From a virus (lineage: Duplodnaviria; Heunggongvirae; Uroviricota; Caudoviricetes), in the IMG/VR virus record IMGVR_UViG_2534681835_000032, positions 1 through 14,811 of that record: a DNA stretch of 14,811 nucleotides; one strand, given 5' to 3'. Positions within the stretch are counted from its first letter, which is position 1. Each line of letters starts with the position of its first letter. The notes under the pieces are model-generated. The model was given only the letters and a program-made list of their open reading frames with translations, had not been told where the DNA came from and searched no databases. Below are positions 6,746 through 14,811 of the stretch, piece after piece. Made by a program: the position numbers and the translations under genes.

Positions 6746-6944
6746 AAAGTGAATTTTGTGATGCGGTGAATGCGGCTAAGCGCACGCGGAACAGTTAAAA
6801 AGCTATTGTCCTTCGTAGCAGAGTTATGGGTGAAATATCCGGCGTTAATTGTTAACTGGTTAACGTCACCTGGAGGCACCAGGCACCGCATCAACAAAGT
6901 TCACTTCAGTGATGAAAGGTGAGAGAAAATGTTGAATGTAGCTA

Positions 6945-6973
6945 TTGAAAACCAGAACGGGTGGAATTATAGT
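6945..6973 (+). promoter_or_regulatory. Near-consensus sigma70 promoter TTGAAA-N17-TATAGT
   Basis: -35 TTGAAA (6945-6950), 17-bp spacer, -10 TATAGT (6968-6973); predicted transcription start near 6980. Confidence 0.45.
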
Positions 6974-6979
6974 GCACCT

Positions 6980-7057
6980 GCACCTCATAAAACGGGTGCC
7001 GGGATTTGCACCCCGATGATCACTAGAGCGCATAACCGCGCCAAAGCGGTTTTTTTA
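6980..7057 (+). ncRNA. Candidate ~77-nt small RNA / leader transcript upstream of the Rha gene
   Basis: Delimited by the promoter at 6945-6973 and the terminator at 7034-7057; internal hairpin GGGTGC(6994-6999)/GCACCC(7008-7013); carries copy 1 of the bipartite motif TTTGCAC...TCACTAGAG in the single-stranded stretch before the terminator. Confidence 0.35.
7034..7057 (+). terminator. Candidate intrinsic terminator (AACCGC-GCCAAA-GCGGTT + T-run)
   Basis: 6-bp GC-rich stem with 6-nt loop followed by a run of T residues; short stem, so moderate confidence. Confidence 0.4.
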
Positions 7058-7222
7058 TGCGTAAAGCGCAGCCACATTCAGATTATGGTGGGGCGTATGG
7101 GGCCGTTTTCGGGCGGGCCGGATTCTCTAGTGACCGGTAGTGCAAACCCTGTACGTCTCACCACCCATGAGATTTGCACCTCCGGTGGCGAGTTTACCAA
7201 CTTATCACTAGAGGCTGCCATC

Positions 7223-7777
7223 ATGGCTACTATCCCTACCCTTTCTCACCCTGACGTAACCATCGAAAATGGTCGTGCTGTCACTACGTCTGTTGCAGTT
7301 GCAGAGTTTTTCCGCAAGCTGCATAAAAACGTCATTCAAAAAATTGAAGCTCTGGAATGTTCCTCAGAATTCACTGAGCTTAATTTTAAGCCAAGTGAAT
7401 ACACCGACTCAACCGGGCGCAAACTCCCAATGTACCAAATCACCAAAAACGGCTTCGTTTTCCTGGTGATGGGCTTCACCGGCAAAAAAGCCGCTGCATT
7501 TAAAGAAGCCTACATCGCTGAGTTCGATCGCATGGAAGCAGAGCTACGCCAGAATAATACCACTCCCACAAACAAAATCATTCCGGGCGATGGGCGCACT
7601 CTGGTTGTTCGCTTCGACAAATTCGGCAACGTCGAATTCACTGAAACCGTTCCTGATGGCGCTCTCGTCTGTACCCTGGACACTTTCCGCCTTTATCTGG
7701 AGAAACAGGGCTGGACTCTTGTAAACCGAAGCGCAATTAAAAATATGACCGTCGAGCAGTTGCTGAGTATTAAATAG
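7223..7777 (+). CDS. Rha-family phage regulatory protein (Phage_pRha domain), 184 aa
   Basis: N-terminal region (LSHPDVTIENGRAVTTSVAVAEFFRKLHKNVIQKIEAL...SEFTELNF...MYQITKNGFVFLVMGFTGKKAAAFKEAYIAEFDRME) matches the Rha domain; SD GAGG 8 nt before ATG 7223. The track ORF extends in frame to 6929, but that extension is rich in rare codons (AGA, CTA, GGG) and contains promoter, terminator and repeat elements. Confidence 0.6.
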   Translation: MATIPTLSHPDVTIENGRAVTTSVAVAEFFRKLHKNVIQKIEALECSSEFTELNFKPSEYTDSTGRKLPMYQITKNGFVFLVMGFTGKKAAAFKEAYIAEFDRMEAELRQNNTTPTNKIIPGDGRTLVVRFDKFGNVEFTETVPDGALVCTLDTFRLYLEKQGWTLVNRSAIKNMTVEQLLSIK

Positions 7778-12271: not shown

Positions 12272-12466
12272 ATGAGATATGACGATGTTAAACCATGTCC
12301 GTTTTGTGGTTGTCCATCTGTTACGGTGAAAGCAATTTCAGGATATTACCGGGCAAAATGCAACGGATGCGAATCCCGAACTGGCTATGGTGGAAGTGAA
12401 AAAGAAGCACTCGAAAGATGGAATAAACGAACTACTGGAAATAATAATGGAGGTGTTCATGTATAA
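12272..12466 (+). CDS. ralR: RalR / Lar (restriction alleviation; type I toxin of the RalR-RalA pair), 64 aa
   Basis: MRYDDVKPCPFCGCPSVTVKAISGYYRAKCNGCESRTGYGGSEKEALERWNKRTTGNNNGGVHV, recognised as RalR; in-frame upstream ATGs at 12260 and 12233 are alternative starts; no clear SD. Confidence 0.75.
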   Translation: MRYDDVKPCPFCGCPSVTVKAISGYYRAKCNGCESRTGYGGSEKEALERWNKRTTGNNNGGVHV

Positions 12467-12647
12467 AATAACTGCCACTATTGAAAAAGAAGGTGGCACT
12501 CCTACTAACTGGACAAGATATTCAAAATCTAAATTAACGAAATCAGAATGCGAAAAAATGCTCTCAGGGAAAAAAGAAGCAGGCGTGTCCAGAGAGCAGA
12601 AAGTAAAGCTGATAAATTTTAATTGCGAGAAACTTCTGTCCTCGTGA
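12459..12647 (+). CDS. ydaC: Small protein YdaC-like, 62 aa
   Basis: MYKITATIEKEGGTPTNWTRYSKSKLTKSECEKMLSGKKEAGVSREQKVKLINFNCEKLLSS; SD GGAGG 6 nt upstream of ATG 12459; overlaps the ralR stop by 8 nt. Confidence 0.65.
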   Translation: MYKITATIEKEGGTPTNWTRYSKSKLTKSECEKMLSGKKEAGVSREQKVKLINFNCEKLLSS

Positions 12648-12753
12648 GTTGCATTATATACAAATTAGAACTTCATAGCTGATTATTAAAAATCAACCAC
12701 ACCCGCCAGTATTCTGTATATTTACTGGCGGTCATATCGTAAGAGGTATGGCA

Positions 12754-13035
12754 ATGAATCTTGTGACACTCAAAACGTGGGGAAAACTCAGATATCCGGA
12801 TAACCCACCATCAATATCAACGCTGAGACGATGGGCAAGGAATGGAAACATTTATCCTGCACCTGAACTACACGGGAGGAGTTACAGGGTGGTTCCGGAA
12901 GCTTTCTATATCAACCCCAATAAGGTTGATACCGATATAACACACCATCAGCCTAATGGGCGACAAGGGAGAGACAGTCCGTTACTGGAGAAGTTAAAAC
13001 ATGCAGCGGAAAAAATACGATCCCAATTTGCCTAA
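12754..13035 (+). CDS. xis: Excisionase (lambda Xis-like), about 93 aa
   Basis: N-terminus LVTLKTWGKLRYPDNPPSISTLRRWARNGNIYPAPELHGRSYRV resembles the lambda Xis winged helix; SD AAGAGG 7 nt before ATG 12754 (ATG 12748 is an alternative); overlaps int as in lambda. Confidence 0.7.
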   Translation: MNLVTLKTWGKLRYPDNPPSISTLRRWARNGNIYPAPELHGRSYRVVPEAFYINPNKVDTDITHHQPNGRQGRDSPLLEKLKHAAEKIRSQFA

Positions 13036-14077
13036 AAACTTAACATATCGAAGGAGGGACAAAGCATATTACTGGCGCAACCCTCTGACGAAAGAAGAAT
13101 TTACACTAGGTAAAATTTCAAGAAGAGATGCAATCGCGCAGGCAATTGAAGCAAATCACTATATATACAAAAACTACTCTACTGCTGCCTTAATTGAAAA
13201 ACTTAAAGGGTTCGACTCATTTACTATGGCAGACTGGATTGAACGTTACAAAACGATTCTTATAAGGAGAAAAGTGTCCAGAAATACTTATAAAATTCGG
13301 GTAAATCAACTGGAGACAATAAAAGAAAAATTGGGAGAGATTTTACTGACAGAAATAACCACTCGCCATATTGCCGAGTTTCTTGATTTGTGGATTGAAG
13401 GAGGGAAAAACACAATGGCAGGATCAATGCGTTCTGTGTTGTCTGATATGTTTCGTGAGGCCATTGTTGAAGGACGTATATCTCAAAATCCAGTAACGCC
13501 AACAAGAGCACCGAAAATAGTAGTTACAAGAGAACGACTGAAACTAAAGACATACAACTGCATCAGGGAGGCAGCAGATCAACTTCCGGCATGGTTCCCA
13601 TTAGCTATGGATTTAGCCCTTGTAACAGGACAACGTCGCGAAGACATAACGAATATGCGGTTTAGTGATATTTATGATGATCGTCTCCACATCAGGCAAA
13701 TTAAGACAGGAATGATGATTGCTATCCCCCTGTCACTCAGCCTTCCTGTCGCTGGTCTACGGCTTGGTACAGTAGTTGAACAGTGCCGCCTGGTAAGCCG
13801 GGGAGATTATCTAATCAGTGCCGGGATTAGAAAAAACAGCCCTGACGGCAGCATTCACCCGGATGGCCTGACAAAAAAATTTGTCGCAGCCAGAAAATTA
13901 ACAGGTATCCAGTTCAGTGAAAACCCACCAACTTTTCACGAGATCAGAAGCCTGGCTGGACGATTGTACAAAGAAACATATGGAGAAGAATTTGCTCAGC
14001 GTCTACTTGGCCACACATCGGAGAAGACAACAAAAATGTATCTTGATGAGAGAGAAAAAACGTACTTACTGCTCTGA
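13001..14077 (+). CDS. int: Lambda-type tyrosine integrase, 358 aa
   Basis: Collinear with lambda Int (N-terminal arm-binding domain [28 protein letters not shown]; catalytic region [34 protein letters not shown] with the presumed catalytic Tyr). Confidence 0.9.
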
Positions 14078-14225
14078 TTTTAACGTAAATGGATTGTTAA
14101 ATGTATTTTGGTTGTGATATAACCAAAAAAGACCGGAATACAGAAATTCGAGTAAATTTCGGGGAATTTCGGGGAGACGCTTGCAACTGATTGATTTTAA
14201 ATACAATTAAAAAAAGACCGAGTAC
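14078..14225. other. attL-like junction: phage P-prime arm with arm-type repeats, and putative core overlapping the 3-prime end of sdsR
   Basis: Region between the int stop and the first recognisable host sequence; contains tandem AATTTCGGGG repeats and two near-copies of AAAAAAGACCG(A/G)(A/G)TAC. Exact crossover point not determinable from one junction. Confidence 0.45.
14144..14174 (+). repeat. Tandem direct repeats AAATTCGAGT / AAATTTCGGGG / AATTTCGGGG (candidate arm-type Int-binding sites)
   Basis: Three adjacent 10-11 bp repeats (two perfect) 67-97 bp downstream of the int stop, in the position of lambda P-prime arm sites. Confidence 0.35.
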
Positions 14226-14311
14226 GATTCCTGTATTCGGTCCAGGGAAATGGCTCTTGGGAGAGAGCCGTGCGCTAAAAGTTGGCATTAATGCAGGCTT
14301 AGTTGCCTTGC
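14209..14311 (-). ncRNA. sdsR: SdsR (RyeB) RpoS-dependent small RNA, ~103 nt
   Basis: Minus-strand sequence GCAAGGCAACTAAGCCTGCATTAATGCCAACTTTTAGCGCACGGCTCTCTCCCAAGAGCCATTTCCCTGGACCGAATACAGGAATCGTACTCGGTCTTTTTT matches SdsR as recalled from memory; terminal hairpin plus U-run at the 3-prime end. Confidence 0.75.
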
Positions 14312-14350
14312 CCTTTAAGAATAGATGACGACGCCAGGTTTTCCAGTTTG
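14312..14350 (-). promoter_or_regulatory. sdsR promoter region with sigmaS-type -10 (TCTATTCT)
   Basis: Minus-strand TCTATTCT ends ~6 nt upstream of the SdsR 5-prime G; consistent with the known RpoS dependence of sdsR. Confidence 0.4.
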
Positions 14351-14400
14351 CGTGCAAAATGGTCAATAAAAAGCGTGGTGGTCATCAGCTGAAATGTTAA

Positions 14401-14440
14401 AAACCGCCCGTTCTGGTGAAAGAACTGAGGCGGTTTTTTT
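14401..14440 (+). terminator. Strong intrinsic terminator (likely RyeA 3-prime end; possibly bidirectional for the yebY-like gene)
   Basis: Long GC-rich interrupted stem (14401-14414 with 14421-14436) followed by a run of T residues on the plus strand; A-run upstream gives weaker terminator character on the minus strand. Confidence 0.65.
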
Positions 14441-14469
14441 ATTGGAAATCAAAAGGCTATTTTAGGTAA

Positions 14470-14811
14470 TTAACAGAGTTTTTCAGCTCGTTCTATAAAC
14501 GGTGCCAGACTCATTTTTTCGCCGGGATTGTTAGGATCATCAATCTGAATCACCGAAATGGGTTGGGCTTTAGTCTTCCCACTGGCAACTTCCTTTTGTG
14601 CGATATCGTTTAAAGGATACTGCACGAGGGTACTTGGGTTAATGACATACAAAGCATTACCCGGTCTGCAAGTCAGCATCACCTCTTCGCGATTAAACGC
14701 CCATTTGTCTTTACCCACTTCAAAACGACTGACGGTAATCACCTGCGGTGCAGCCAGCGCCGCTGCAGAACTGGTGAGTAACAGAAACGTCAGAATACTT
14801 TTTTTCATCAT
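14470..14811 (-). CDS. yebY: Secreted DUF2511-like host protein (YebY-like), 113 aa
   Basis: [40 protein letters not shown]... with a signal peptide; start codon at the window edge; in E. coli the sdsR/ryeA locus lies beside yebY. Symbol assigned from memory and context. Confidence 0.6.

Follow-up and report, generated by a model that had tools for sequence, protein, structure and literature searches.

SdsR, also called RyeB, is a conserved sigma-S-dependent small RNA (sRNA) that regulates porins, tolC, and mutS. In E. coli, SdsR and its antisense partner RyeA have been proposed to function as an RNA toxin/antitoxin pair. For integrases that target tRNA and tmRNA genes, the principle associated with Williams 2002 is that crossover occurs in a loop of 7 nt between the halves of a symmetric stem and that the phage replaces the 3' end, such that the RNA gene stays intact. 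The closest described case of integration at sdsR is that of the Salmonella DT104 phage ΦW104. According to review passages that relay the work of Balbontín 2008 (J Bacteriol 190:4075; PMC7380047, PMC3333887), ΦW104 integrates in the last ~23 bp of ryeB, internal to ryeA, and ΦW104 lysogeny alters the 5' part of ryeA, lowers ryeA, and raises ryeB (PMC7380047, PMC3333887). Hairpin-forming sRNA targets, with a citation of the ryeB integration, are discussed by Bobay 2013, and island nomenclature names the site, as in "Cfr111.52.RyeB." The basic phenomenon is already known from Salmonella since 2008, and the E. coli case that we describe here extends that work. No published description of an E. 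coli case at the SdsR terminator was found in the literature searched.

The stretch of DNA analyzed, called the window here, is 14,811 nt long and 100% identical to E. coli O111:H8 strain 8E (NZ_CP077465.1). Our conclusion, to which we assign a probability of roughly 90%, is that a lambdoid prophage with a Rac-like early region was inserted by Int-mediated site-specific recombination into the sdsR terminator, and that RyeA was thereby cut from its promoter. The recombination genes lie next to the attachment site. Specifically, xis, the excisionase gene, occupies positions 12748..13035 on the plus strand (Pfam PF07825 Exc, E=6.5e-14; strain 8E has a RefSeq excisionase annotation at the corresponding place). 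It overlaps int (13001..14077, plus strand), an open reading frame for a 358-aa tyrosine integrase of the lambda family (Pfam PF00589, PF22022, and PF09003). The int stop at 14077 is followed by a 130-bp spacer, by sdsR on the minus strand (14209..14311), and by the host flank gene yebY, also on the minus strand (14470..14811; Pfam DUF2511, E=4.8e-45, and RefSeq annotation). The Rfam SdsR_RyeB model RF00111 matches 14308..14209 on the minus strand over model positions 1-100 of 100, with 113.1 bits against a cut-off of 38; K-12 SdsR scores 114.4 bits. The SdsR 5' end, GCAAGG, was placed by sequence at 14311. A previous sequence-only reading of this DNA had recognized the same order of a lambda-type int, SdsR, and yebY, and the reading-frame, Rfam, and Pfam evidence bears it out, including the identification of 14209-14311 as sdsR.

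That reading had also located the prophage in the 3' end of sdsR, and three comparisons, with the K-12 locus, with the second prophage end, and with a phage attP, agree. Compared with K-12, where the locus (pphA - sdsR - yebY) is empty, the window matches exactly from ACGATTCCTG (14224) rightward, shows three base differences in the distal terminator arm and tail, and has no relation further left. Among 5426 complete E. coli genomes, 5425 match window positions 14078-14811 over at least 80% of the length, nearly all of them only from 14208 on. Because E. coli homology begins at 14208, the stretch 14078-14207 is not ordinary host DNA. Rather, 14078..14223 constitutes the int-proximal arm of attP, the counterpart of the lambda P' arm. 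It is wholly phage-derived and colinear with the attP of phage record PP818812.1, is unrelated to the K-12 pphA-sdsR spacer, and is present in only 228 of the 5426 genomes. The opposing possibility, namely that host sequence runs unbroken through 14078-14210 and that the attachment site lies elsewhere, is refuted by the genome alignments, the K-12 spacer, and the free-phage attP; nothing was found in its favor, and we consider it extremely improbable.

The second prophage end lies on the pphA side of the locus in strain 8E, in which the prophage is ~56 kb in length and spans sdsR to pphA. In window orientation, the pphA-side junction reads ...ATAAAAAGAGACCGAACACGATTCCTGT|TTTCGTCAACAAACG..., that is, host, ACGATTCCTGT, phage. 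The int-side junction present in the window, attL in lambda terms, reads ...TTAAAAAAAGACCGAGTACGATTCCTGT|ATTCGGTCCAGG..., and the K-12 attB in the same orientation reads ...ATAAAAAGAGACCGAACACGATTCCTGTATTCGGTCCAGG.... The predicted order in attP is arm, ACGATTCCTGT, TTTCGTCAAC, and PP818812.1, whose int gene is 96.8% identical in DNA, carries ...TTAAAAAAAGACCGAATACGATTCCTGTTTTCGTCAAC..., unbroken through both phage arms. All four sites share an identical 11-bp core, ACGATTCCTGT (14224..14234), and both copies in strain 8E are perfect. Four-way and six-way att alignments show that the bases bordering the core (phage T or host C at 14223; host A or phage T at 14235) swap as reciprocal exchange predicts. 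These diagnostic bases confine the crossover to 14224-14234. The att anatomy is that of classic site-specific integration with reciprocal exchange; the junctions, the attP, the family of the integrase, and the population frequency of the insertion are all direct observations in support of integration. One junction in IMG/VR reads GTTTTCGGTCCAG, with the phage T at the equivalent of 14235 and host sequence thereafter; thus, the boundary of exchange or repair is not always the same. Several IMG/VR attP loci possess alternative int-distal arms (GTTCTCGCC..., GTTTACGG...).

The placement of the core suggests how an sRNA terminator could serve as an attachment site. The core contains the 7-nt loop of the SdsR terminator, GATTCCT (14226-14232), which lies between the two stem arms. 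Those arms form a 10-bp inverted repeat around the loop and, together with it, would imitate a lambda-type C-O-C' core. By analogy, the loop is likely the overlap region and the stem arms are likely the core-type Int sites. Strand exchange took place inside the 11-bp identity ACGATTCCTGT. Since a copy of the distal stem arm and U-tail is present in the phage attP, SdsR is rebuilt as a host/phage chimera: the 5' part, 14311-14235, is host, the core is shared, and the 3' end is phage. The phage supplies 14209..14223 on the minus strand, which covers the U-tail (14209-14215) together with most of the distal terminator arm, and the chimeric SdsR would keep what looks like a working terminator. In these respects, the window prophage behaves as do phages that target tRNA and tmRNA genes: crossover falls in a 7-nt loop and the phage restores the 3' end of the target RNA. 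The difference is that sdsR encodes a regulatory sRNA that depends on Hfq and is overlapped by an antisense partner, so restoring sdsR truncates ryeA.

The integrase is of lambda type, and the arm that it presumably binds resembles that of lambda in layout. The PF00589 catalytic domain match has E=7e-17, the PF09003 arm-binding domain scores 29.7 bits against a cut-off of 22, and comparison with lambda Int structures (5j0n, 1z1b) gives E=1.8e-72. All six catalytic residues are present, with R212, K235, H313, R316, H338, and Y347 aligning to lambda R212, K235, H308, R311, H333, and Y342. The protein is ~42% identical to HK022 Int and 97.5% identical to the Int of phage pPE4, the phage of record PP818812.1. 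Within the arm, a tandem pair of AATTTCGGGG (14155..14174), also present in pPE4 and, as AATTTCGAGG, in a related Salmonella module, provides candidate arm-type binding sites, and we infer from the repeat pattern that Int may bind there. An IHF-consensus match, AATCAATCAGTTG (14184..14196, minus strand; pattern WATCAANNNNTTR), adjoins the core, and the pattern recurs at this position in each of the three attP versions. If this element is an IHF site, the order of core, H'-like site, and P'1-3-like sites would resemble that of lambda. The other attP arm carries a related AAATTTTCGGG motif and an IHF-like TTCAATTAGTTA. Shared with lambda and HK022, then, are the Int domain set and catalytic residues, the overlap of xis and int by the att site, an IHF-like site with tandem arm repeats, and an inverted-repeat core around a 7-bp spacer. 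The differences are that Int is only ~40-42% identical, that the target is an sRNA terminator rather than the gal-bio intergenic attB, and that the arm harbors an extra core-like element.

That extra element, AAAAAAGACCGGAATACAG (14125..14143), is a second, degenerate copy of the 3' half of the SdsR terminator, a direct repeat (D2) in the phage arm. On the minus strand it reads CTGTATTCCGGTCTTTTTT, compared with GTATTCGGTCTTTTTTT in SdsR. The 27-mer that holds it does not differ between the E. coli and Salmonella modules, although its flanks diverge, and no matches to this arm 27-mer were found in species-representative genomes. We considered a role for the copy as a backup terminator on the SdsR-sense strand and rejected it, as the element folds no better than shuffled sequence (z = -0.65 and -0.16). 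It could instead be an extra Int site. The Salmonella module is that of phage record OK490361.1, which encodes an Int that is 73% identical, presents the attP elements in the same order, and has the core AAAAAGAGACCGAATACGATTCCTGT. This is therefore a single, conserved family of Int/attP modules that targets the SdsR terminator in E. coli and Salmonella alike.

In the window, the SdsR terminator pairs the minus-strand arms GACCGAATAC and GTACTCGGTC, leaving one A·C mismatch. The sequence-only reading had noted the mismatch and explained it as the expected mark of a distal arm acquired from attP. The mismatch is present, and the arm and U-tail are phage-derived in the att alignments; the explanation, however, fails, since the stem is perfect in attP and in 98% of lysogens. 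Specifically, the usual attP arm, GAATAC, found in the free phage and in lysogens such as O157:H7 Z869 and RMDEC465, makes a perfect 10-bp stem with a U7 tail. The window arm, GAGTAC, carries a private A-to-G SNP, the G at 14222, that occurs in 4 of 227 lysogens. These counts derive from an 81-mer probe whose exact window version is present in only 4 of 273 matching genomes; 227 genomes cover the 81-mer, most with three differences. The window arm has three SNPs relative to the common version, one of them in a presumed core-type site. IMG/VR gives a similar picture, with GAATAC in 79 and GAGTAC in 3 of 82 loci. The calculated hairpin energy is -13.7 kcal/mol for K-12, -13.7 for a typical lysogen, and -9.8 for the window, and the SNP at 14222 would thus be predicted to weaken the SdsR terminator in the window lineage. 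Most E. coli terminators carry GAACAC, which forms a G·U pair. The K-12 terminator has this pair and a UCUUUUU tail; the tail in the window is U7. In approximately 46 genomes, the match is limited to the host portion of the probe and the terminator has the perfect-stem GAATAC form; the one inspected (strain 005008) has an empty site. The attP/attB identity amounts to 11 bp with the K-12-type (GAACAC) attB and to 20 bp with the GAATAC-type attB, a polymorphism that might affect the efficiency of integration.

The consequences of integration for RyeA follow from its position on the opposite strand. In K-12, the most downstream ryeA start lies at SdsR coordinate ~+141, and RyeA reaches a length of up to 272 nt (Choi 2019, PMC6610125). 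Using those data, we set the K-12 ryeA -10 element, TATGGT, at positions 2451-2456 of our K-12 locus (L001) and the start at ~2464; the -10 assignment rests on the mutagenic primer that converts TATGGT to CTCGAG (Choi 2019, PMC6610125). Adding 11707 to an L001 coordinate gives the window coordinate, and the -10 element and start therefore map to 14158-14171. The segment corresponding to the promoter and the first ~53 nt of RyeA, 14158-14223, is phage DNA, as the sequence-only reading had anticipated. Because RyeA starts ~40 nt past the SdsR 3' end, its promoter and roughly first 53 nt went with the other junction, by pphA: there, 56 kb away, the native promoter and ~64 nt of RyeA are kept, reading into the other phage arm. 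The displaced promoter points towards an nleC pseudogene and an IS1 copy. What the window retains of host ryeA is 14224..14442 on the plus strand, from approximately RyeA nt +54 to the terminator (stem 14404-14408 / 14429-14433, U-run 14434-14440), with the native promoter and 5' end gone. Nonetheless, the Rfam SraC_RyeA model RF00101 matches 14205-14349 on the plus strand at 176 bits, against a cut-off of 37, over its full 145-nt length. The model begins at L001 2498 in K-12, ~34 nt downstream of the mapped RyeA start, and for this reason a full match cannot reveal loss of the promoter or the 5' end. Rfam-based annotation thus needs care, since RyeA is still called complete in lysogens.

Integration also separates a second host gene from its transcription. 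In K-12, most pphA transcription arises by read-through from the sdsR promoter, and sdsR is subject to interference from ryeA transcription (Choi 2019, PMC6610125). In the lysogen, pphA lies 56 kb from the sdsR promoter, and read-through from SdsR would be expected to enter the prophage antisense to int. By analogy with the K-12 and Salmonella literature, RyeA should fall in lysogens, SdsR should rise, and pphA should lose transcription from the sdsR promoter. Shifts in the SdsR/RyeA balance could change stress and drug-tolerance traits.

A different outcome is that RyeA is rewired rather than lost. The notion is that antisense RNA across sdsR now begins within phage DNA, by way of an arm promoter or of read-through from int, which would place the SdsR antagonist under phage control. 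In typical lysogens, a sigma-70-like TTTGCA-16-TACAAT lies on the plus strand just before the SdsR 3' end and matches 9 of 12 consensus positions; int and ryeA point in the same direction; and, according to a passage in one review (PMC7380047), ryeA is reduced, not abolished, in ΦW104 lysogens. Moreover, no terminator-like element or significant structure was found on the plus strand between the int stop and sdsR, making read-through from int possible. In the window itself, however, the -35 is CTTGCA, below the threshold of the promoter scan; the Salmonella module does not preserve the -35, and the conserved IHF-consensus site overlaps the spacer. The same scan misses the experimentally proven K-12 ryeA promoter and so says little either way. 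On these grounds we rejected a substitute RyeA promoter in the phage arm as a feature of the window and kept it only as part of this rival account, which overall we judge plausible, at somewhat under even odds. Simple separation of RyeA from its promoter is the reading that we prefer.

A more elaborate form of rewiring would have three components: the native RyeA promoter is removed, pphA is cut from its promoters, and sigma-S-driven read-through from SdsR converges on int while read-through from int becomes a new SdsR antisense RNA. We regard this full combination as unlikely. If true, expression of the phage int gene would be tied to a stationary-phase sRNA circuit of the host in ~4% of E. 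coli strains, among them EHEC O157, O111, and O26-like lineages.

How does the E. coli prophage compare with ΦW104? As at the ΦW104 site, the core falls within the final ~23 bp of sdsR, internal to ryeA. A copy is found at each prophage end, the arms being reciprocally exchanged, and in attP, and the 5' part of ryeA is replaced. As far as the reviews describe ΦW104, the target and the consequence for the ryeA 5' part are the same. The sequence-only reading had drawn attention to the site because an sRNA gene rather than a tRNA gene is the target; the peculiarity is real, and ΦW104, in those review passages (PMC7380047, PMC3333887), is its precedent, meaning that it is not new. OK490361.1 shares its attP layout with the window and is a related Salmonella phage record, not established as ΦW104. 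Relative to what the reviews report of ΦW104, the window prophage differs in that its host is E. coli, its integrase is a diverged homolog, and its identical core with the majority GAACAC attB is 11 bp, not 20 or more; the window lineage additionally has the SNP predicted to weaken the terminator. Because the E. coli downstream gene, pphA, shares transcription from the sdsR promoter, a further host gene is disconnected. Three points are specific to E. coli: pphA is cut off, RyeA, as part of a proposed toxin/antitoxin pair, loses its promoter, and the terminator is putatively weakened in the window lineage.

The locus is intact in 5191 of 5426 complete E. coli genomes and split in 235, and the int-arm-sdsR junction occurs in 228 (~4.2%). 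At least two of the splits without this integrase are insertion sequence events, not other phages: an IS10-family (ISVsa5) copy lies inside sdsR in one genome and IS1 lies between pphA and yebY in another (NZ_AP027783.1, NZ_CM128592.1). In IMG/VR there are 65 loci with the junction and at least 7 with an intact attP; the junctions flank two SdsR sequence types. With ~4% of complete E. coli genomes, including many Shiga-toxin-producing lineages, carrying a prophage here, the insertion is relevant to comparisons of SdsR, RyeA, and pphA expression between strains. The Int/attP module is joined to differing late regions, with lambda-like tail genes in strain 8E versus a baseplate J type in pPE4, which shows mosaic exchange.

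One can ask whether the junction in strain 8E is a fossil, left by a defective, fixed prophage whose att sites are no longer recombined. The terminase large-subunit gene of strain 8E is interrupted by a ~10-kb integrase-bearing element, IS1 and an nleC pseudogene lie near the far att site, and the three SNPs in the window arm include the one in a presumed core-type site. All are compatible with decay, and the strain 8E prophage may be defective. Yet the int and xis reading frames are intact and both core copies are perfect. Furthermore, O111:H8 strain 9662 is without the phage arm, which shows that the element is polymorphic within the serotype. A satellite embedded in one of the helper's late genes is, moreover, a described reversible arrangement and not necessarily a sign of decay (PMC10111431). 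We find a fossil junction rather unlikely. The terminase-splitting element (L003 4295-16667 in our strain 8E locus, outside the window) has its own integrase, primase, and capsid genes and looks like a helper-embedded PICI of the kind reported in PMC10111431. Just inside the pphA-side att site (L003 35102-36613, strain 8E) are IS1 and the nleC gene, a type III effector gene that is frameshifted.

The early region of the window prophage has recE, recT, ralR/RalA, kilR, ydaE, ydaF, and ydaT in common with the Rac prophage of K-12, a comparison made by gene names only. K-12 Rac sits at ttcA and has its own integrase. Given that the att site in the window is sdsR, the prophage is not Rac itself. 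Two type I toxin-antitoxin pairs are encoded in the Rac-like early region: hokD with sok RNA at window 1-325 (sok at 151-325, minus strand), and ralR with RalA RNA at 12272-12643 (RalA at 12465-12643, minus strand, 219 bits). PP818812.1, deposited as "Actinobacillus phage vB_Apl-pPE4," has an int and attP ~97% identical to those of the E. coli prophages and further encodes RalA, sok, isrK, and C4 RNAs of E. coli type along with recET/kil/ydaT genes; its Actinobacillus host label looks doubtful. Finally, at window 6929-7777, Rfam isrK (6980-7056) and C4 (7081-7168) antisense-RNA matches fall in the 5' part of an open reading frame annotated as encoding a Rha-family regulator. Either its start has been annotated too far upstream, or the frame has an RNA-regulated leader like that of P1 c4/icd-ant or Gifsy-1 isrK.
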